A stretch of DNA of 64,000 nt from an uncultured Candidatus Saccharibacteria bacterium (GCA_964504255.1 CAZDDU010000001.1:33843-97842), one strand, 5' to 3'. Numbered from the stretch's first letter, positions 22,150-43,121 are shown. The notes: generated by a model from the letters alone, not told the origin. Program-made: numbers and translations.

Positions 22150-22177
22150 GGTTTACACTGAGTTTGTTGAAGTGTGC
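22150..22177. repeat. 28-bp direct repeat copy 1 (GGTTTACACTGAGTTTGTTGAAGTGTGC), 3' trailer of tRNA-Arg
   Basis: Identical 28-mer also at 22270-22297; 12-nt core TTTACACTGAG also at about 20633. Confidence 0.8.
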
Positions 22178-22246
22178 CCCCAGCAGGAATCGAACCCACA
22201 TCCCTTGTTCCGAAGACAAGTACTCTATCCGTTGAGCTATGGGGGC
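22175..22246 (-). tRNA. tRNA-Arg (anticodon TCG)
   Basis: Hand-folded cloverleaf: GCCCCCA acceptor, anticodon loop CTTCGGA, TTCGATT T-loop. Confidence 0.8.
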
Positions 22247-22269
22247 AGTATTAGTATTCTATCAGGTTT

Positions 22270-22297
22270 GGTTTACACTGAGTTTGTTGAAGTGTGC
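22270..22297. repeat. 28-bp direct repeat copy 2, 3' trailer of tRNA-Gly(GCC)
   Basis: Identical to 22150-22177. Confidence 0.8.
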
Positions 22298-22365
22298 GGC
22301 CAGGGAGAATCGAACTCCCATCTCATCCTTGGCAAGGACGTGTTCTACCACTAAACCATGGCCGC
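22295..22365 (-). tRNA. tRNA-Gly (anticodon GCC)
   Basis: GCGGCCA acceptor, anticodon loop TTGCCAA, GTTCGATTC T-arm. Confidence 0.8.
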
Positions 22366-22419
22366 AAGTATGATGATATTAGCCTAAAAGTGCTATAAAT
22401 GCTAGAGTAAATCTCTCCA

Positions 22420-22490
22420 CGGAGTGTAATACAGCGGTAGTATACACGATTCGGGTTCGTGAGACCCGGGTTCGATTCCCGGCACTCCGA
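22420..22490 (+). tRNA. tRNA-Pro (anticodon CGG)
   Basis: CGGAGTG/CACTCCG acceptor, anticodon stem CACGA/TCGTG, loop TTCGGGT. Confidence 0.8.
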
Positions 22491-22512
22491 AAGTGTATAA
22501 TCTAACCGAGCA

Positions 22513-22583
22513 CGGACTGTAGTATAACGGTAGTATACATCCATGGGGTGGATGCGGCCCGGGTTCAATTCCCGGCAGTCCGA
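22513..22583 (+). tRNA. tRNA-Pro (anticodon GGG)
   Basis: CGGACTG/CAGTCCG acceptor, anticodon stem CATCC/GGATG, loop ATGGGGT. Confidence 0.75.
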
Positions 22584-22606
22584 CAAGTTTTGGTTGGTGG
22601 TTCAGT

Positions 22607-22679
22607 CGGGGCGTGGTGTAACGGCTAACATGTCTGTTTTGGGTACAGATGACTCCGGGTTCGAATCCCGGCGCCCCGA
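22607..22679 (+). tRNA. tRNA-Pro (anticodon TGG)
   Basis: CGGGGCG/CGCCCCG acceptor, anticodon stem TCTGT/ACAGA, loop TTTGGGT. Confidence 0.8.
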
Positions 22680-22732
22680 CTGAGGCTCTAACTAGTTCAA
22701 ATAGGCCTCTAAATAAGGATATTTCAAATAAA

Positions 22733-22806
22733 GCGGGATTAGTTTAATGGTAGAATAAGAGTTTTCCAAACTTTAGGTGGGAGTTCGATTCTCCCATCCC
22801 GCACCA
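22733..22806 (+). tRNA. tRNA-Gly (anticodon TCC), CCA encoded
   Basis: GCGGGAT/ATCCCGC acceptor, anticodon loop TTTCCAA, genomic ACCA end. Confidence 0.85.
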
Positions 22807-26062: not shown

Positions 26063-28318
26063 ATGTTAAAAGATTATTTTAATAAAGTTACACAAATGAA
26101 AAGACTTTTTTTGGTGGTAGGTTTGATTGCGCTTTCTTTGGGTGTCGGCCAGGCATATGCTTGGGTCGAGCCAACTCTCGCACCACCAAACGGCAATGTC
26201 ACTGCACCTCTTCGACTTGATGCAAACGGTAGACTAGGCATAGGTATCACTAGTCCAGGAAAAATATTTGAAGTAATGAGTGAGATAGTAGCAAGAGCAT
26301 CTTCAGCTTCTGGTGGCGTTGCTTCTTCTTTTTCCTCCGACTCAACTGGTGCACAAATTTGGGTTAATTCGGCTTATGACCCTGCGAGTCCAGCTACGGG
26401 TTGGGGAAGGCGAGTAACGATAGCTCCGAACGGAAATGTTGGTATAAACAATCAGTTTCCATCTGCAAGACTTCATGTGAACCTTGATGCAAACAGGGAG
26501 ATTCGTGTGGGTACTGGTATCTCGACTGCTTTGACCGACGCATCAGTGTTCGGACCAGTACTGAGCTTCTCAAGAGGTTCGGACGGCGTAGATGATATCG
26601 CCGGAATCTTTCAGTACACAACCGCGGGGGCTGCAAACAGACTCGCTATTGCTTCGAGAGATGACATAGTTTTTGCTGCCGGCGGAGCCTCAACCTACCC
26701 ATCCGCTCCAGAAAGAGTCAGAATTACTTCAACAGGAAATGTTGGTATTGGTACGAGTGCTCCAAACGAGCCTTTAGAAGTGGCCAATTCAACTAACGGA
26801 GGTAGATTGATAGTCTCAGATGGTGCTGGTGCATCTAGAAGAACCTTACTTATGGTTTCGCCTACTGCTACTAACAACTTCGGGCGTATTGAGTCATACA
26901 ACTACGGCGCCTCTACTGGAGTGCCTCTATATATAAACAGCAGCGGTGGGGGGAACGTCTCTGTGGGCAACCTTGCTCCAACTTATAAGCTAACTGTCGC
27001 GGGAGATGTAAACGTACCAACTGGCAGTTGCTACAGAGTGAACGGTGTTTGTATTACTTCTGGTGGCATGTCTGGTAGCGGCACAGTGAACACACTCCCG
27101 TTGTTTACTGCAGCAAGTACTTTGGGTGATTCGAGACTTTCTCAACAAGCAGATGGTTCGGTGAGAACGACAAGCCCTACTGGTTGGGTGGAATTTGGTC
27201 CAAAAAATGCTGGTTTTAACCACATTTACACTGATAGACCTGCGACCATTTTCAACACAGGAGTCTGGGCTATTTCAGGAATCTTTAGTGCATACAACCT
27301 AGACAACCTTAGGCTTCAGACCAACGGTACCGACAGGATCACGGCCCTGGCATCTAACGGCAACGTAGGTATCGGTACAGCAGCCCCAACACAGCGCCTT
27401 ACGGTGAATGGTAATTTGAACAAACTCGGTTCTTGGATAATCGGAGATGCTAACTGGTCACCACAAGGACTCGAGGTTCATAATAGTTCATGGGACGGAT
27501 CATCGAACAATAATTATGGAGCTGTCGCAGGAGGTAAACTCTTTGCTTACAACGGCCTACAATCTGGTGGAGCTACTGGCGCCGAGGCAACAGACGGAGA
27601 ACTATATGTCTCTGGTCGCTCAATGCTTATGGGCAATGTTGGAATAGGAACATCCGCATCATCTGTGAATAAATTGAATGTTATACATACAGATACAAAT
27701 AACTATAATCCCACCTCAGCAGCTATCTATGGAGAACATTCGGCAGCCAACAGTCCAGCAATTTATGGAAAAAATACTGCAGCCACATCAAATGGTATAG
27801 GTGTTAAGGGAGATGGAATGATTTATGGTGTTCAGGGTTATGCTACCAATGCAGATGGAAGTGGAGTTTATGGTCAGGGAGCAGGTGGTGCGGCCGCAAG
27901 AGGTGTGCTTGGTGCGGCATCCGATGGCTATGGAGTATATGGGTTATCAAACTTTGGGTACGGCGTTTATTGCTCAGCTCCCCGTTGTGGAAGTACGGGA
28001 ATATCTTGGACAACTACATCAGATGGTAGGTTGAAGGAGAAAGTGAGTACCATTACTAATGGTCTAGATAAGATACTTAAACTTCGAGGTGTTAACTATA
28101 CTTGGAAAGATGGAAGAATTAATGGTAACCAGGTTGGGTTTATTGCGCAAGAAGCAATGAAAGTGGTTCCTGAGTCTGTGACCCAAGATAGTGATGGTAC
28201 CTACTCTATGTCATACGAAAGAATAGTTCCGGTATTAGTTGAAGCAATCAAAGAACTCAAGGCTGAAAATGATGATTTGAAGGCAAGGTTGGAGAGACTC
28301 GAAGCTAAGATCAAATAA
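26063..28318 (+). CDS. tail-fibre-like surface protein with C-terminal intramolecular-chaperone (peptidase S74-like) domain
   Basis: Signal/TM; five or more NGNVGIGTxAP repeats; C-terminal ...SDGRLKEKVSTITNGLDKILKLRGVNYTWKDG...YERIVPVLVEAIKELKAENDDLKARLERLEAKIK typical of the auto-cleaving chaperone domain. Confidence 0.7.
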   Translation: MLKDYFNKVTQMKRLFLVVGLIALSLGVGQAYAWVEPTLAPPNGNVTAPLRLDANGRLGIGITSPGKIFEVMSEIVARASSASGGVASSFSSDSTGAQIWVNSAYDPASPATGWGRRVTIAPNGNVGINNQFPSARLHVNLDANREIRVGTGISTALTDASVFGPVLSFSRGSDGVDDIAGIFQYTTAGAANRLAIASRDDIVFAAGGASTYPSAPERVRITSTGNVGIGTSAPNEPLEVANSTNGGRLIVSDGAGASRRTLLMVSPTATNNFGRIESYNYGASTGVPLYINSSGGGNVSVGNLAPTYKLTVAGDVNVPTGSCYRVNGVCITSGGMSGSGTVNTLPLFTAASTLGDSRLSQQADGSVRTTSPTGWVEFGPKNAGFNHIYTDRPATIFNTGVWAISGIFSAYNLDNLRLQTNGTDRITALASNGNVGIGTAAPTQRLTVNGNLNKLGSWIIGDANWSPQGLEVHNSSWDGSSNNNYGAVAGGKLFAYNGLQSGGATGAEATDGELYVSGRSMLMGNVGIGTSASSVNKLNVIHTDTNNYNPTSAAIYGEHSAANSPAIYGKNTAATSNGIGVKGDGMIYGVQGYATNADGSGVYGQGAGGAAARGVLGAASDGYGVYGLSNFGYGVYCSAPRCGSTGISWTTTSDGRLKEKVSTITNGLDKILKLRGVNYTWKDGRINGNQVGFIAQEAMKVVPESVTQDSDGTYSMSYERIVPVLVEAIKELKAENDDLKARLERLEAKIK

Positions 28319-37245: not shown

Positions 37246-37272
37246 GCTATTTATAGTGAGCTTGTCGAACTA
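37245..37272 (-). repeat. junction element copy on the minus strand (TAGTTCGACAAGCTCACTATAAATAGC) before the HIT gene ATG
   Basis: Reverse complement of the plus-strand sequence; begins with the stop codon of the LTD gene. Confidence 0.7.
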
Positions 37273-38214
37273 ATATGAAATACTATCTACTAATACTCCG
37301 CTTGGGTCGAAGAGCGAGATTTTTTCATCTTCGTTGGCCCACATCTCCCAAGGTCGATGGAGATATACATACCAGGTCTTGCCTTCGAAATCCTTATCGC
37401 CTATATGGTTAGCCAAGCACCCCTCATAACTGAAATGACTCTTAACATAAGCGATACACATGCTAGACAAACCCTCCTCGCCATCTACGCAGTCTCGACA
37501 TATTTCATTGTCATTATTCCTTCCGCCGTATTTAGGAGTATGACAAGTTTGTAGTTGATCTACGTATCTCTTGCAACTAGTGTCGAGCGTCGAGTACCCA
37601 ACTTCTTTTGCAGGTCTGACACAACTCTTCTCTAATCCTCTTGGGAACTCGTATGTTTCGTCTAGGTATCCTGTGCAGGAGTTCTCCTTGAAGCTCGTAA
37701 GTGTGTACGAGGTTAAGTTCCCTGGTCCGCCGGAGATGATTATCGCTCTCTCGCCACGTTTTAGAATAATGTTCTCAAGATGACTTCTGCCGTCGGGAGA
37801 GACGATCTTTGTTCCCTGTGGGATCATCCCTACATCTGATGTGTAGTGCATGTACTGACTTCCAATAGCATAGCTTCTAGCTGATTTGCCATTCTCTAGT
37901 CTGTATCCAGTAATGTTTACCTGGTTAGAACCATTGTTCTCTATTACCACATACTCGCTCATTGGATCGTTCTCGTATTTACTGTTACCCCTCTCTATTC
38001 TTAGAGTTCTCGTTCCACTGCTATTAGTACCAGATGTGTAACTCCTTGTTTCAGATCCATCTTGGTTTGAGTTCTCCCGATTGTTTATTTGGTTCCAGCC
38101 AGAGATATCGAACCGCACACCTTTTGGGATGAGTATAGCGAAGATGACTATACTTATAGCAAAGAAGGCCAAAAGCCATTCTACAAAGGCACCTTTCTCC
38201 AGAGTCTTCCTCAT
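37270..38214 (-). CDS. membrane-anchored lamin-tail-domain (LTD) protein with Cys-rich C-terminal domain
   Basis: TM; EYVVIENNGSNQVNITGYRLENG matches the LTD signature; 10 Cys in the last about 120 aa. Confidence 0.6.
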   Translation of the reverse strand: MRKTLEKGAFVEWLLAFFAISIVIFAILIPKGVRFDISGWNQINNRENSNQDGSETRSYTSGTNSSGTRTLRIERGNSKYENDPMSEYVVIENNGSNQVNITGYRLENGKSARSYAIGSQYMHYTSDVGMIPQGTKIVSPDGRSHLENIILKRGERAIIISGGPGNLTSYTLTSFKENSCTGYLDETYEFPRGLEKSCVRPAKEVGYSTLDTSCKRYVDQLQTCHTPKYGGRNNDNEICRDCVDGEEGLSSMCIAYVKSHFSYEGCLANHIGDKDFEGKTWYVYLHRPWEMWANEDEKISLFDPSGVLVDSISY

Positions 38215-38232
38215 AAAGGGTATAATACCACG

Positions 38233-39861
38233 ATGTCTTTAGACGATATTCTCCACAAATTGCTCCACGATAGGAGTATTACTGATAAAGAAGACTTCCT
38301 TACCCCCAACTACAGCAAGCTCCATGATCCACTTCTTTTGCCTGACATGGAAAAGGCTCGAGACAGGGTGCTCCGGGCGATTAAAGATAACGAGCATATT
38401 TTCGTCTTTTCTGATTATGATGCTGACGGTATCCCGGGTGCGGTGGTGATGAAAGATTTTTTTAGAAAAATAAAGTACGACGATGTTTCCTTCTACATCC
38501 CACACAGGCATGACGAAGGTTTTGGCCTTAATACCGATGCAATGGATGAGGCAGATAAGCGAGGTGCGAAACTTATTATCACAATAGACTGTGGTACTGC
38601 GGACTCGATAGAGGTGGCTCATGCAAACTCATTAGGGATTGATGTCATCATTACCGATCATCATGAAGCCAATGAGTTGCCAGACGCCTACGCGATAGTT
38701 AATCCGAAGATTAATCCGCCAGCTGGCGGAAAGAAGTATCCCTTCGATGGACTCTGTGGAGCAGGAGTACTCTATAAACTTATCCAAGCTATATATATGA
38801 AGGAGAGCTTTGGTTTGCCAACTGGAGTGGAGAAGTGGTCGCTTGATATGGTAGCCATAGCGACACTCTCTGATATGGTGCCACTAGTGGGGGAGAACAG
38901 GATCCTCTCTCACTTCGGACTCCAGGTGCTTCGTAAGTCTCCTCGCCCAGGGATACAGGCTCTGTGTAAAAAGCTTGGGATGGATCAGAGATACTTAAAT
39001 GAAGACGACATCGGCTTCATGATCACGCCCCGTATTAACGCCGCATCAAGGATGGGTAAACCCGAAGATGCATTTAACCTTCTTTCCACCACAGATCCGA
39101 GGGAAGCAGAGGAACTCGTCCTGCACCTTGAGAGTATTAATAATGAGAGGAAGGGTATAGTGGCTTCGATAGTGAAGGATGCTAAGAAGCATCTAAGTGA
39201 GAGAGAGAATATTTCTAAAGTAATTGTCATCGGTAACCCCGAGTGGCGACCTGCCCTCCTAGGACTCGTAGCGAACTCTCTTGTAGAAGAGTATGAGCGA
39301 CCAGCCTTCGTCTGGGGGAGAGATGGTGATGATAAGCTCAAGGGCTCATGCCGGTCATATAATGGTTATGATTTATTCGAACTGATGAATCATGTTAAAG
39401 AATCATTTGTAGAGTATGGAGGGCATGCTGGGGCAGGGGGCTTTTCTGTCACACTCGAGAGTTTGGTAACCCTGGAGGAGAGGCTATCAGAAGCGCTCAA
39501 TAAACTCGAGATGACACTCAATAAGACTCATAACAGTTTGGAGATTGAAATCAAAGATGTAGGAGAGGGCTTGTATAGAGTTTTAAATAAATTAGCACCA
39601 TTTGGGATGGGTAACCCGAAGCCAGTGTTTAGGATAAATAACGCTGAGATCAAGTCTTTGAAGCAGTTCGGCAAAGCCAAGGACCACCTCGAGCTAACTC
39701 TCGCACCGAATATCAAAGCGATCTCTTTCTTTTCTAATCCTGATTCATACTCAATCCTACCTACGACCACACTCTGCAATCTCGATGTCCATTTAGAGAA
39801 ATCCTACTTCCGCGGTCGCCCAGAGCTTCGACTTAGGATTGTTGATATAATCTCAACATGA
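38233..39861 (+). CDS. recJ: single-stranded-DNA-specific exonuclease RecJ
   Basis: DHH motifs (VFSDYDADG, IITDHH), DHHA1 region; start at Met49 of track ORF. Confidence 0.85.
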   Translation: MSLDDILHKLLHDRSITDKEDFLTPNYSKLHDPLLLPDMEKARDRVLRAIKDNEHIFVFSDYDADGIPGAVVMKDFFRKIKYDDVSFYIPHRHDEGFGLNTDAMDEADKRGAKLIITIDCGTADSIEVAHANSLGIDVIITDHHEANELPDAYAIVNPKINPPAGGKKYPFDGLCGAGVLYKLIQAIYMKESFGLPTGVEKWSLDMVAIATLSDMVPLVGENRILSHFGLQVLRKSPRPGIQALCKKLGMDQRYLNEDDIGFMITPRINAASRMGKPEDAFNLLSTTDPREAEELVLHLESINNERKGIVASIVKDAKKHLSERENISKVIVIGNPEWRPALLGLVANSLVEEYERPAFVWGRDGDDKLKGSCRSYNGYDLFELMNHVKESFVEYGGHAGAGGFSVTLESLVTLEERLSEALNKLEMTLNKTHNSLEIEIKDVGEGLYRVLNKLAPFGMGNPKPVFRINNAEIKSLKQFGKAKDHLELTLAPNIKAISFFSNPDSYSILPTTTLCNLDVHLEKSYFRGRPELRLRIVDIIST

Positions 39862-40337
39862 TTATTATATTTACCGATGGGGCAGCGAGGGGGAATCCTG
39901 GTGGAGGGGGTTGGGGGGCTATTATAGCCAAGGAGTTTGAGGTTAGGGAAATAGGAGGCAAGGATCCATACACCACCAACAATAAGATGGAGCTTACTGC
40001 TGCCATAGAGGCACTTAAAACTTTAGAATTCGGAGTTGAGGTAGAGCTCTATACAGACTCAGAGTATGTCATGAAGGGGATGACTGAATGGGTATGGAAC
40101 TGGCAAAAGAATGGCTGGAAGACAGCTGCGAAGAAACCGGTAGAGAATCAGGATCTTTGGAAGGATCTTGTATCAGCCAGCGAAGGAAAAAACATTTCTT
40201 GGAAGTATGTTGCCGGTCACTCGGGGAACGAGGCAAACGAGAGATGTGATGAGATAGCGACTAAGTACGCAGACCATTTATCCGTAGAACTATATGCAGG
40301 GAGTCGGGGCGAGTACCCAATCAGTCTCAAGGCCTAA
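39858..40337 (+). CDS. rnhA: ribonuclease HI
   Basis: IFTDGAARGNPGGGGWGAII, TNNKMELTAAIEAL, SGNEANERCDEIA. Confidence 0.9.
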   Translation: MIIIFTDGAARGNPGGGGWGAIIAKEFEVREIGGKDPYTTNNKMELTAAIEALKTLEFGVEVELYTDSEYVMKGMTEWVWNWQKNGWKTAAKKPVENQDLWKDLVSASEGKNISWKYVAGHSGNEANERCDEIATKYADHLSVELYAGSRGEYPISLKA

Positions 40338-41751
40338 TCTTAAAATCCTTCTAGCACTCTGGGGATTCATCTTTGGTATTCTCTTCGCTTCAATAATTTC
40401 GATACACCCCCTTGTATCTATCCTGATTATCTTTGTCGCGCTAACCATTTATGTATTGGATAGAAATGTTTTTATTTTAATAATACTGGTTGCTTTATCC
40501 TTAGGAATACTCAGATACGATATCAAAGACTTTCATGAGTTGTCGCCAGCGGGGAATATGGGTGTAGTGGTGTCCGAGCCCGAGAGCAGAGACAAAGACA
40601 CTCGTTATGCGGTTCTTACTAATACTAGAGAAAAAGTTTTGGTCACTGACGAGATCTTTAGCAAGGTTGAATATGGAGATGAAGTTAAGTGGATAGGAAC
40701 TCCTAAGACTCTAAAACCCGGTGGCTATGCCAACTATTTAGCCAAGGATGATATTTTCTACACCCTTGAGAGAGCGAAGGTGGAGATTGTTTCTCACGAT
40801 AAAGGAAACAGTGTTAAGAGCACTCTCATCAAGGTTAAAAGGTTTCTCACTGACAAAGTTAAAAGTATCTTGCCCGAGCCTGAGGCCAGCCTCCTCTCGG
40901 GCCTAATCGTCTCGGGCAAGCAAGCATTACCCAAAGAAACTTTAGAGAGCTTCAAGGATGCTGGAGTGGTACATATGGTCGTGCTCTCGGGTTACAACAT
41001 TACGATAATCGCTGAATTCTTGCTCATCGTCTTTGCGTTTCTTGGTTCTAGAATTTCAGGCTTTATCGCACTTGGGGGAGTAGTGCTCTTTACTATTATG
41101 TCTGGAGCGCCTGCGACGGTCGTTCGGGGTGCCATTATGGTTTCGTTCCTCTTGCTCGGCCGATTGATGAAACGACCCGGCTCGCCACCAAGAATACTTC
41201 TCTTCACTGCGGTATTGATGCTCCTACACAACCCAAAGATTCTGCTCTATGACCCATCCTTCCAGCTCTCATTCCTCGCTGTGCTCGGACTTATATACGG
41301 TACCCCTCTTGTCGAAAAGCTATTTGCCTCTCACGGTCAAGAGGGAAATTCGAGACAAACAGTTTTTCGACTTCGAGAATTAGTTTCCACCACTTTAGCT
41401 ACACAGCTCTTTGTCTTACCACTTCTTTTATATAGCATGGGCAACTTCTCACTCGTGTTCCTCTTCGCCAATATTCTTATCTTGCCCATTCTCCCAATCG
41501 TCATGCTCATCGGATTCATTGGCACACTACTTTCATTTGTACTTGGTGTCTTGGCTATGCCTATTAACTTCATTACTCACTTGCTACTCGCATACATACT
41601 TAAGGTTGCGGATTTCTTTGGTAACTTACCATTTGCGAGTTTAGAAATAGAAAACTTCCCCTTGTGGGGAAGTTTGGTGATGTATGCGTTGATATTTATT
41701 ATCGTCTGGCATTCTCGAAATTCATCTCCACGCTCTCCCAGTTTAGATTAG
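40294..41751 (+). CDS. comEC: ComEC/Rec2 DNA-internalisation channel, membrane part (DUF4131 + competence domain); no MBL domain in this ORF
   Basis: Multi-TM; LSGLIVSGKQALPKETLESFKDAGVVHMVVLSGYNITII competence motif; start may lie downstream of 40294. Confidence 0.75.
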   Translation: MQGVGASTQSVSRPNLKILLALWGFIFGILFASIISIHPLVSILIIFVALTIYVLDRNVFILIILVALSLGILRYDIKDFHELSPAGNMGVVVSEPESRDKDTRYAVLTNTREKVLVTDEIFSKVEYGDEVKWIGTPKTLKPGGYANYLAKDDIFYTLERAKVEIVSHDKGNSVKSTLIKVKRFLTDKVKSILPEPEASLLSGLIVSGKQALPKETLESFKDAGVVHMVVLSGYNITIIAEFLLIVFAFLGSRISGFIALGGVVLFTIMSGAPATVVRGAIMVSFLLLGRLMKRPGSPPRILLFTAVLMLLHNPKILLYDPSFQLSFLAVLGLIYGTPLVEKLFASHGQEGNSRQTVFRLRELVSTTLATQLFVLPLLLYSMGNFSLVFLFANILILPILPIVMLIGFIGTLLSFVLGVLAMPINFITHLLLAYILKVADFFGNLPFASLEIENFPLWGSLVMYALIFIIVWHSRNSSPRSPSLD

Positions 41752-42298
41752 AGAAGAAGGCTTCGACGTAATTCTTCTTCTCCGCAGGAGTGTAGTCGAG
41801 GTAGTAAGAATGCTCCCACATATCGAGTGCGAGTAGGGGTGTTGCTCCCTGTAGTTGTCCTAGATGTTGTTCATCTACCCAAGAAGCTAGGAAACGATCA
41901 TCTGCCTTGTCGTACCAAAGTATTGCCCAGCCTATTCCTCGAGTCAGTGCCAAGGCTTTAAATTCGGTTAGAAATTTATCCATTGAGCCAAAGAGTTCGA
42001 GAAGTCTCTTGCCTAGCTCGCTTTCCTTATTTAATTCTTTACCTCCACCAGAAAGGGAAGAGAAGTAAACTTCATGGTTTCTCATACCATTGTATTCAAA
42101 GCTGAAACGACGAAATAACTCTCCGACTATGTAAGGATCCTTTGCGCTATCAAGGGATGACATCTTTTCCATAATGAGGTTCGCGTTCTTCACATAACCG
42201 GCATATAGTTTAAGATGCTCATCAATAGTCTTTTTAGAAATGCCGACCAAGTCTCCGATTTCAAATTTCTTTTCTTCGAATGTTTTCATGTACTCCAT
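41699..42298 (-). CDS. sodA: Fe/Mn-family superoxide dismutase
   Basis: DMWEHSYYLDY C-terminal signature; overlaps both flanking ComEC pieces by about 50 bp. Confidence 0.7.
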   Translation of the reverse strand: MEYMKTFEEKKFEIGDLVGISKKTIDEHLKLYAGYVKNANLIMEKMSSLDSAKDPYIVGELFRRFSFEYNGMRNHEVYFSSLSGGGKELNKESELGKRLLELFGSMDKFLTEFKALALTRGIGWAILWYDKADDRFLASWVDEQHLGQLQGATPLLALDMWEHSYYLDYTPAEKKNYVEAFFSNLNWESVEMNFENARR

Positions 42299-43121
42299 TA
42301 TAGCAGTTTTGGTTTTCTCTAACCTTTTTGTGTGGTCGAGAGTTTATTCGAGTAATGAAAGTGAGCTCAAAGTCTACTTCCTCGATGTGGGGCAGGGTGA
42401 CGCGATACTCATTGAGTCGCCCACACAAGGTAGAGTACTTATAGACGGCGGGCCAGACAGGAAGGTGCTAAGTGAGCTTGGTCGAGTCCTGCCCTTCGGT
42501 GACAGACATATTGATGTGGTCATAGAGTCGCACCCAGATGCTGACCACATTACTGGCTTAGTGGAGGTGATAAATAGATTCGGTGTGGATACATTTGTCT
42601 CAACCGGCATGAGATCGACTAACTCACTTGATGAAACACTAGACGAAGTAATACAAGAAAAAGAAATAAATAAGATCCAAGCCAAGAGGGGGGTAAGTCT
42701 CGACCTCGGTGGTGGAGTTGTGCTCACATTGCTCTATCCAAGTGGAAGTATAGAGGGCCTCGAGACGAACGAAGCCTCAATAGTCTCGAAGCTTACTTTG
42801 GGTGAGATGGATTTTATCTTGACTGGAGATTCGACCAAGCTCGCAGAATATAAATTACTCTCATTAAACAAAGAGCTATTGGATTCAGAAGTGTTACAAG
42901 TTGGGCACCATGGGTCAGAGACCTCAAGCTCTCTACTGTATGTACAAGCCGTGAGCCCAGAGTACTCTGTCATCTCTTCGGGCAAAGATAATAGATATGG
43001 TCACCCACACAAGGTAACTCTCGACACATTAAACAAGATAAAGACAAATATATTAAATACTGCAGACGTCGGTAGAATCTTATTTAAAACAGATGGAGAG
43101 AAACTCGAGGTCGAGTATTAG
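42240..43121 (+). CDS. ComEC-type metallo-beta-lactamase domain protein (separate ORF with its own TM helix)
   Basis: VYFLDVGQGDAILIE...VIESHPDADHITGL...QVGHHGSETSSS MBL motifs. Confidence 0.75.
   Translation: MPTKSPISNFFSSNVFMYSIIAVLVFSNLFVWSRVYSSNESELKVYFLDVGQGDAILIESPTQGRVLIDGGPDRKVLSELGRVLPFGDRHIDVVIESHPDADHITGLVEVINRFGVDTFVSTGMRSTNSLDETLDEVIQEKEINKIQAKRGVSLDLGGGVVLTLLYPSGSIEGLETNEASIVSKLTLGEMDFILTGDSTKLAEYKLLSLNKELLDSEVLQVGHHGSETSSSLLYVQAVSPEYSVISSGKDNRYGHPHKVTLDTLNKIKTNILNTADVGRILFKTDGEKLEVEY

Follow-up and report, generated by a model that had tools for sequence, protein, structure and literature searches.

The closest described relatives of the locus reported here are fused ComEC/Rec2 proteins, in which a DUF4131 region, a Competence channel domain and a metallo-beta-lactamase (MBL) nuclease domain form one chain. 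Cryo-electron microscopy (cryo-EM) of full-length ComEC revealed 11 transmembrane (TM) helices, with the channel lined by TM4-9 and with TM10 and TM11 at the periphery, separated by a short cytoplasmic helix; TM11 was missing from one protomer, and the MBL domain was a rigid body on a flexible linker, with its orientation set by a limited contact that it makes with the OB fold (PMC13539106). The domain profiles of ComEC vary (PMC6299819), and a ComEC without the MBL domain has already been reported as the norm for the candidate phyla radiation (CPR), in which the ComEC-MBL fusion is essentially absent, with just six genomes carrying it (Méheust et al. 2019, PMC6744442). Here, we analyzed a 64-kb stretch of DNA (64,000 nt, hereafter the window; GCA_964504255.1, CAZDDU010000001.1:33843-97842) from an uncultured Candidatus Saccharibacteria bacterium. 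We consider it highly probable that ComEC is natively a two-gene protein in the Parcubacteria/Paceibacteria lineage studied here, with a superoxide dismutase gene (sod) lying antisense between the gene for the channel core (ORF1) and the gene for the nuclease (ORF3). An earlier reading of the window (the sequence-only reading) had described ComEC in two pieces around a complete antisense Fe/Mn sod; the arrangement of the three open reading frames (ORFs) is as it described, and the ORFs and their Pfam and NCBIfam matches bear it out.

Channel and nuclease genes

The core gene, ORF1 (Table 1), matched the Competence domain (PF03772) with an E-value of 4.4e-50 over profile positions 2-266 of 270. 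The sequence-only reading had assigned ORF1 a DUF4131 and a Competence domain but no MBL domain; the last two points held, while DUF4131 (PF13567; residues 40-164, profile positions 8-163 of 165) scored 15.4 bits against a cut-off of 31.6. DUF4131 is matched by ORF1 homologs at ≤67% identity, and the same region of ORF1 aligns with P0387, a fused 818-aa ComEC from a Dehalococcoidia metagenome-assembled genome (MAG). The 120 best homologs of ORF1 (44-97% identity) were all 427 to 538 aa in length and carried DUF4131 and/or Competence only, with an MBL domain in none of them (0/120). The core alignment contained 89 invariant columns, and the core is the equivalent of TM1-TM10 in fused ComEC.

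The product of ORF3 matched Lactamase_B in Pfam and, among structures in the PDB, the ComEC MBL domain 9ic4 (E = 4.6e-30) and residues 513-793 of 30bt. As the sequence-only reading had proposed, it combines a TM helix with ComEC-type motifs: DxGQGD, HPDxDH, GD, HHGS and YGHPH are all present in the window and are at least 95% conserved in 56 species. Conservation of the family, in the same 56 species, starts at the helix, a hydrophobic stretch at residues ~18-36 that is itself family-conserved and aligns with 30bt from residue 513 and with helix 536-552 of P0387, that is, with TM11. All of the 120 best ORF3 homologs were free-standing proteins of 243 to 313 aa. An exhaustive search of 1.84 billion representatives with ORF3 gave the same picture, with ~140 of the 150 best matches free-standing and six being fused ComECs of 793 to 818 aa; as for free-standing MBLs outside the clade, this search returned almost only ingroup members and fused ComECs. 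Three proteins (P0321, P0375 and P0379) are free-standing MBL proteins of ~365 aa with an N-terminal extension of ~90 aa that group with the fused ComECs and not with the Parcubacteria family. They may stem from separate splits of ComEC in other lineages or from gene calls that are truncated.

We also weighed whether ORF3 is an unrelated membrane MBL hydrolase that lies near comEC by coincidence, given that its Pfam match is to the generic Lactamase_B family and that models of B3-like lactamases and defence MBLs match it weakly. This explanation is very improbable: the top NCBIfam match is the C-terminal third of ComEC_Rec2 (128 bits), the best PDB matches are ComEC nuclease domains, the motif is the ComEC-type HxDxDH and not HxHxDH, the N-terminal helix aligns with ComEC TM11, and the adjacency to the core persists after loss of sod (see below).

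ORF1 and ORF3 tile fused ComECs without a missing part, and the break between them is clean. On the model PRK11539 (E. coli-type ComEC), ORF1 covered positions 191-471 and ORF3 positions 483-727, with ORF1 residue 472 falling on position 471 and ORF3 residue 23 on position 483. Against P0387, ORF1 aligned with residues 54-524 and the MBL domain of ORF3 with residues 561-815 (44% identity), and against solved full-length ComECs, ORF1 residues 19-472 corresponded to 9vc6 46-504 and ORF3 to 30bt 513-793. Neither ORF reached the equivalog cut-off (190 bits) of the single-polypeptide model TIGR00361 (ComEC_Rec2), with 80.6 bits for ORF1 and 128 bits for ORF3; the two cover different parts of the model (positions 114-349 and 428-663, respectively) and cover it jointly, which is the split form. 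Alignment to full-length ComEC, named by the sequence-only reading as a check on the domain boundary, thus came out in favor of a clean one, predicted to fall in the cytoplasmic loop between TM10 and TM11. Since TM10 and TM11 are peripheral and the linker is flexible in the cryo-EM structures, such a cut arguably lies at the most tolerant place of the protein.

We propose that the second gene would supply the last TM helix (TM11) and the MBL nuclease, which would sit outside the membrane, anchored via TM11 in a topology deduced from the sequence, and would degrade the non-transported strand; nuclease activity is predicted from the conserved ComEC-type motifs. The cut would fall in the short TM10-TM11 loop, where fused ComECs have a mobile peripheral helix and a flexible linker tethering the independently moving nuclease. 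Both polypeptides would then assemble in the membrane, with TM11 packed at the periphery and the small OB-MBL contact placing the nuclease, and the assembled two-chain ComEC would take up DNA like the fused protein.

All that speaks for a disrupted pseudogene, or for a split created by sequencing or assembly, is that the locus superficially resembles one gene spread over two frames around another. We assign this explanation next to no likelihood: dozens of independent assemblies show the same structure, both halves are full length with motifs conserved across 35-97% identity, and both halves start and stop at codons of their own. Recurrence in independent assemblies of dozens of species is far beyond chance and rules out assembly error as well as the frameshift or read error at 41700-42300 for which the sequence-only reading had wanted a check.

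The superoxide dismutase gene and the age of the arrangement

The product of sod scored 84.8 bits for Sod_Fe_C (PF02777) and 27.9 bits for Sod_Fe_N (PF00081; just over the cut-off of 27), had an NCBIfam match too and aligned end to end with solved superoxide dismutases (SODs), e.g., 8bhx and 1coj. The metal ligands H28, H75, D159 and H163, which correspond to H26, H73, D156 and H160 of E. coli FeSOD, are invariant together with Y35 in all 63 family members (62/62 aligned for H28 and Y35), as are W124, W161 and E162 in 63 species. The invariant ligands predict an active Fe/Mn superoxide dismutase. An inactive pseudo-enzyme was considered and rejected: a 1-residue deletion shifts the alignment so that H26 seems to be replaced by E, and the ligand His itself does not vary. 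The same one-residue deletion accounts for the odd segment DEHLKLY. A SOD had been called notable for a presumed anaerobe or episymbiont, which was overstated, as SOD genes are found in 66-83% of Patescibacteria MAGs (PMC8672522).

Both ends of sod reach into the flanking genes. At the 3′ end, the overlap with the core gene is exactly 53 nt: the core stop TAG (41749-41751) lies inside sod, antisense to a Leu codon, and the last ~13-17 core residues are the antisense reading of the conserved sod C-terminus. Across species, the core/sod overlap measured 20, 23, 29, 44, 47, 50, 53, 56, 71, 104, 107, 125 or 143 nt, and almost all of these lengths are ≡2 mod 3, so the relative phase of the two genes is fixed. 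At the 5′ end, the N-terminal consensus of the sod family (MKxFEEKKF) places the start at M4 (position 42289), and ORF3 offers two starts, ATG 42240 (M1) or ATG 42288 (M17, immediately before the TM helix). The overlap with the MBL gene is 59 nt only for the longest ORFs; counted from sod M4, it is 50 nt with M1 or 2 nt with M17 (a shared CATG). Overlaps of about 50 bp at both ends, as first proposed, are therefore confirmed at the core end and depend on the choice of starts at the other. M17 is not conserved in the 67% identical L003, where the codon is ATA, which leaves M1 as the sole start common to the subclade of the window. A hairpin 3′ of sod is a candidate intrinsic sod terminator (Table 1); as a family feature, an embedded terminator was rejected, since the hairpin is identical only in L001, the nearest relative, and most overlapping loci lack a stem of ≥6 bp.

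A species-level contig scan yielded 80 further loci at 35-59% identity, the closest 80 of >590 matches, from Zambryski-, Kaiser-, Campbell-, Taylor- and Terrybacteria-like MAGs, among others; 83 loci were scored in all (the window and 82 relatives). The order core→←sod→MBL was present in 53 of them (the window and 52 others), tightly packed in 37 and with extra spacing or inserted genes in 16. In 10 loci, sod was present and the MBL gene lay off the contig end or was not found in the flank; 8 had the core and MBL genes without sod (5 abutting), 8 had neither sod nor an MBL gene within ~6 kb of the core, and 4 were too short to score. A fused core-MBL ORF occurred in none of the 82 related loci. 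The 16 species with extra spacing carry it, some with added genes, at the core-sod or the sod-MBL junction (e.g., a 107-aa ORF at 7184-7507 in L006 and 1.2-1.5 kb in L011, L043 and L067); these junctions are insertion-tolerant in lineages without gene overlap.

In a neighbour-joining tree of the concatenated core and MBL proteins (736 columns, rooted on six fused ComECs, 200 bootstraps), the ingroup was monophyletic in 200/200 replicates. Species with sod between the halves fell into both children of the ingroup root in 200/200 replicates, a purely sod-free lineage was sister to the rest in 0/200, and Fitch parsimony reconstructed sod as present at the root, followed by four losses. Within the sampled clade, to which the term is restricted, the sod wedge is ancestral; the common ancestor of the clade's Zambryski-, Kaiser-, Campbell-, Taylor- and Terrybacteria-like members would already have had the core→←sod→MBL layout. 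One loss has left a trace: in a Zambryskibacteria MAG (L024, 7352-7450), an internally deleted sod scar consists of the last ~19 codons, which lie under the core tail, and ~9 N-terminal codons, with the ATG changed to ACG and the promoter spacer before the MBL ATG intact. The parts left are exactly those used by the neighbouring genes. In the sod-free abutting pairs L050, L055, L075 and L079, the two co-directional ORFs overlap by 11-26 nt and no trace of sod is seen.

The sequence-only reading had left two origins open, an insertion of sodA into an ancestral comEC or natively separate modules. At the level of the lineage, natively separate modules fit best, with both halves free-standing in every relative examined, a clean break and the motifs kept. 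A recent insertion is excluded by a wedge that is ancestral to the sampled clade. An ancient one is a credible rival that we nevertheless rate below the native split: a reverse-orientation sod cassette would have entered the TM10-TM11 loop of a fused comEC and made the split, its near-palindromic −10 element would have given the downstream fragment a divergent leaderless promoter, and the halves would have stayed functional. This fits the sod-between state at the root and the failure of a basal sod-free lineage to appear in any of the 200 bootstraps; the free-standing MBL family has MBL domains of fused ComECs as its closest outgroups, and with a bidirectional −10 in the spacer and leaderless starts common in the lineage, one event could yield two expressed genes. 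Against it, no fused, sod-interrupted intermediate was found among the 82 related loci, and the four sod-free lineages with tidy overlapping core/MBL pairs are readable as the older state if the tree is wrong. Moreover, because the ComEC-MBL fusion is nearly absent across the CPR (six genomes; PMC6744442), an MBL-less core may be older than the sampled clade and the wedge. Split relatives without sod, which had been put forward as evidence against an insertion, do exist (L024, L050, L055, L075 and L079), but they are nested secondary losses and L024 is scarred, so that their existence does not discriminate between split first and insertion first.

Start regions and the position of sod

The start codons of sod and the MBL gene typically lie at a distance of 20-33 bp (0-50 bp in 26 of 49 loci, with an overlap in 6), and the spacer between them holds a conserved near-palindrome, TATAGTATAAT / ATTATACTATA. 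A −10 box (at least 5 of 6 matches) ending 6-10 nt 5′ of the ATG was present on the sod side in 32 of 39 loci and on the MBL side in 30 of 39, against a background of 4%, and Shine-Dalgarno (SD)-like motifs were present in 1 of 39 on each side. The spacer has collapsed in the subclade of the window, where the start regions overlap. In the window itself, a perfect extended −10 element for sod, TGCTATAAT, lies seven nt before ATG(M4), which implies that the sod mRNA may be leaderless or nearly so. A sigma-70 consensus scan of the window gave no more matches than shuffled controls; it missed the extended −10 because this element has no −35. A −10 box on each strand and the lack of an SD in the spacer point to a separate promoter for the nuclease gene, probably leaderless and back to back with that of sod. 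The nuclease gene would then lie outside the recJ-rnhA-comEC(core) transcript and be expressed from its own leaderless or near-leaderless mRNA.

Starts that lack an SD and are preceded by a −10 box at a distance of 6-10 nt from the ATG also occur at other genes of the related loci, namely M50 (28/40), rnhA (21/39) and the gene for a lamin-tail-domain (LTD) protein (7/12). The starts of S12 differ, with a −10 box in 2 of 53 and SD-like motifs in 16 of 53. These starts suggest that leaderless mRNAs may be widespread in these Parcubacteria; a literature search on leaderless transcripts in Patescibacteria returned nothing on such starts.

In the reading we prefer, sod and the channel gene are interlocked at their 3′ ends in a fixed reading phase, sod and the nuclease gene share a 5′ spacer of 20-25 bp, and the position of sod would be a frozen accident, held by these overlaps and by strong regional synteny and not as a functional part of DNA uptake. 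Several points weigh against this account as a whole. The trees are neighbour-joining trees only, from one concatenate, and the sample comprises the 80 closest species of >590 matches. On the MBL side of the window, there is no good −10 before M17 and only AATAGT 10 nt before M1, and the promoter bases on that side are also constrained by sod coding; −10 boxes on both strands without an SD are found across the loci, and in the window on the sod side only. Assembly in trans and leaderless transcription are things we infer, and a functional link could instead be what keeps the wedge so highly conserved.

Such a link would mean that the shared bidirectional promoter makes sod and the nuclease gene either co-regulated or mutually exclusive, that the convergent overlap exerts excludon-like antisense control on the channel gene and that uptake is coupled to oxidative stress. 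In line with this, most species have kept the wedge despite deep divergence, and the −10 boxes of the two strands overlap each other in a stretch of 20-25 bp. The 3′ overlap of core and sod is also phase-locked and in many species leaves no space for a terminator between the two genes. We nevertheless hold it to be unlikely, since sod was lost at least four times with the core and MBL genes staying together, five loci keep sod with no MBL gene found in the downstream flank, strong synteny extends over the whole 12 kb, unrelated housekeeping genes included, and a 3′ overlap at MBL/L28 makes tight packing a general habit of the genome. More doubtful still is a full regulatory device, in which a minimal bidirectional leaderless promoter and mutual antisense interference would let oxidative stress switch between self-protection and DNA import; if true, competence in CPR bacteria would be tied to redox state through the wedge, in a conserved and class-wide manner. 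A frozen accident locked by overlap is most likely, ahead of any regulatory role.

Neighbouring genes and comparison with described systems

Table 1. Coordinates of the genes and elements discussed, counted from the first letter of the window
Feature	Position	Strand	Description
comEC core (ORF1)	40294..41751	+	485 aa; N-terminal TM helices, putative DUF4131/OB-like region, Competence channel domain; no MBL domain
sod (Fe/Mn superoxide dismutase)	41699..42289	−	196 aa from family-consensus start M4; longest ORF reaches 42298
comEC nuclease gene (ORF3)	42240..43121	+	293 aa; one N-terminal TM helix (= TM11) and ComEC-type MBL domain
Putative extended −10 element for sod	42297..42305	−	read from sequence; ends 7 nt 5′ of ATG(M4), within MBL coding sequence
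Hairpin, candidate intrinsic sod terminator	41652..41675	−	perfect 10-bp stem, T-rich tail; 24 nt 3′ of sod stop, within core coding sequence
rnhA (RNase HI)	39858..40337	+	Pfam RNase_H, E = 1.7e-44
recJ	38089..39861	+	Pfam DHH, DHHA1, RecJ_OB; longest ORF, start probably ~150 nt further in
LTD protein gene	37270..38214	−	divergent neighbour of recJ
Peptidase_S74 protein gene	26063..28318	+	751 aa; C-terminal Peptidase_S74 (endosialidase intramolecular chaperone) domain
tRNA gene cluster	22175..22803	both	six tRNA genes
TTAG shared by MBL gene and rpmB (L28) stops	43118..43121		4-nt overlap of convergent genes

The core gene closes a co-directional run headed by recJ (recJ-rnhA-comEC(core)), and recJ is kept upstream of the core in nearly all relatives. 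The stop of recJ overlaps the start of rnhA in an ATGA at 39858, and rnhA overlaps the start of the core gene by 44 nt, an overlap that recurs in L003, L005 and L006. The TTAG at the MBL/L28 stops is found in L001, L003 and L004 too, so that, with the ATGA and the 44 nt, extreme packing of genes is region-wide. Four relatives (84, 67, 61 and 47% core identity) share the block TIM-PGK-HIT-LTD-RecJ-RNaseH-core→ ←sod →MBL ←L28 M50-S12-S7-EF-G.

The context genes named by the sequence-only reading, i.e., RecJ, RNase HI, the LTD protein, the type IV pilus genes and comM, were confirmed by Pfam, with matches for RecJ, RNase H, the LTD protein, PilB, PilC, pilins and a ComM-type Mg-chelatase ATPase. 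To call them a full DNA-uptake toolkit goes too far, as they lie within a long conserved housekeeping synteny (TIM, PGK, HIT, L28, M50, S12, S7 and EF-G), which makes adjacency alone weak evidence of functional coupling. The proposal of DNA uptake for nucleotide scavenging is tempered by a cultivated Saccharibacterium in which comEC is needed for transformation and not for growth (PMC10633639).

The LTD protein is the divergent recJ neighbour in all relatives with a core identity of at least ~42%, and tblastn found none in the more distant clade. The protein might bind DNA at the surface in place of ComEA. The Peptidase_S74 gene lies directly 5′ of a gene for a 468-aa protein without a Pfam match, which is followed by the pilB, pilC and pilin genes. 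Peptidase_S74 domains are typical of phage tail fibres, and this one could belong to an adhesin or surface fibre that cleaves itself. The tRNA genes listed in Table 1 are clustered on both strands.

Our literature search found no described split ComEC or sod-ComEC linkage, no account of a TM11-MBL gene beside the core or of a cut between TM10 and TM11, and no account of an ancestral antisense sod wedge in a large Parcubacteria clade or of a sod/nuclease bidirectional promoter. In public annotations, some of the ~285-aa ORF3 homologs already bear the name "MBL fold metallo-hydrolase" or "ComEC/Rec2 family". In the literature searched, neither the conserved sod wedge nor the free-standing partner gene appears to have been described. 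A practical rule for annotation follows: a ~285-aa "MBL fold metallo-hydrolase" located 3′ of sod in these genomes would be the second half of ComEC. The impression of a nuclease-less CPR ComEC would be corrected as well, because the nuclease is encoded next door, at least in this Parcubacteria clade. Recent structural work argues for a cooperation of OB fold, channel and nuclease in one chain, and a lineage with a separate nuclease and TM11 suggests that the covalent tether is dispensable. A two-gene ComEC would also mark where the protein can be cut and let recruitment by OB contact and TM11 packing alone be tested. Finally, the locus would be a compact case of an unrelated gene that stays lodged within a functional gene pair through long evolution, retained by overlaps at the gene ends and by a shared promoter of 20 bp.

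Compared with described systems, the two-gene ComEC would have the three modules of fused ComEC/Rec2 (DUF4131-Competence-Lactamase_B; Bacillus subtilis, and Neomoorella carbonis by cryo-EM) in the same order, with DUF4131 in ORF1 below its cut-off, and has the same catalytic motifs, but it differs in being two genes, cut between TM10 and TM11, with an antisense gene between them and probably different promoters. With the MBL-less ComECs (the "DC" profile of Pimentel & Zhang 2018, PMC6299819, and the CPR family of Méheust et al. 2019, PMC6744442), it shares a core of Competence and a putative DUF4131 region without a nuclease; it differs in that the nuclease is kept as a separate, TM-anchored ComEC-type MBL gene ~0.5 kb downstream, a gene on which the two papers are silent. 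The sod product resembles tetrameric-type Fe/Mn SODs (Aquifex 1coj, Mycobacterium 1ids and archaeal 1p7g) in full-length homology, the four ligands, the gateway Tyr and the second-sphere His, whereas it lacks one residue between the first ligand His and Tyr34 and has an invariant LY in place of the HH pair. The antisense overlaps at both of its ends recall excludons and overlapping gene pairs, a likeness of layout, known here from sequence. In Streptococcus pneumoniae, ComEC and EndA likewise provide the channel and the strand-degrading nuclease as cooperating separate polypeptides (PMC12455585); EndA, however, is unrelated to the MBL fold, whereas the separate nuclease of the window is the MBL domain of ComEC itself with its own ComEC TM helix.

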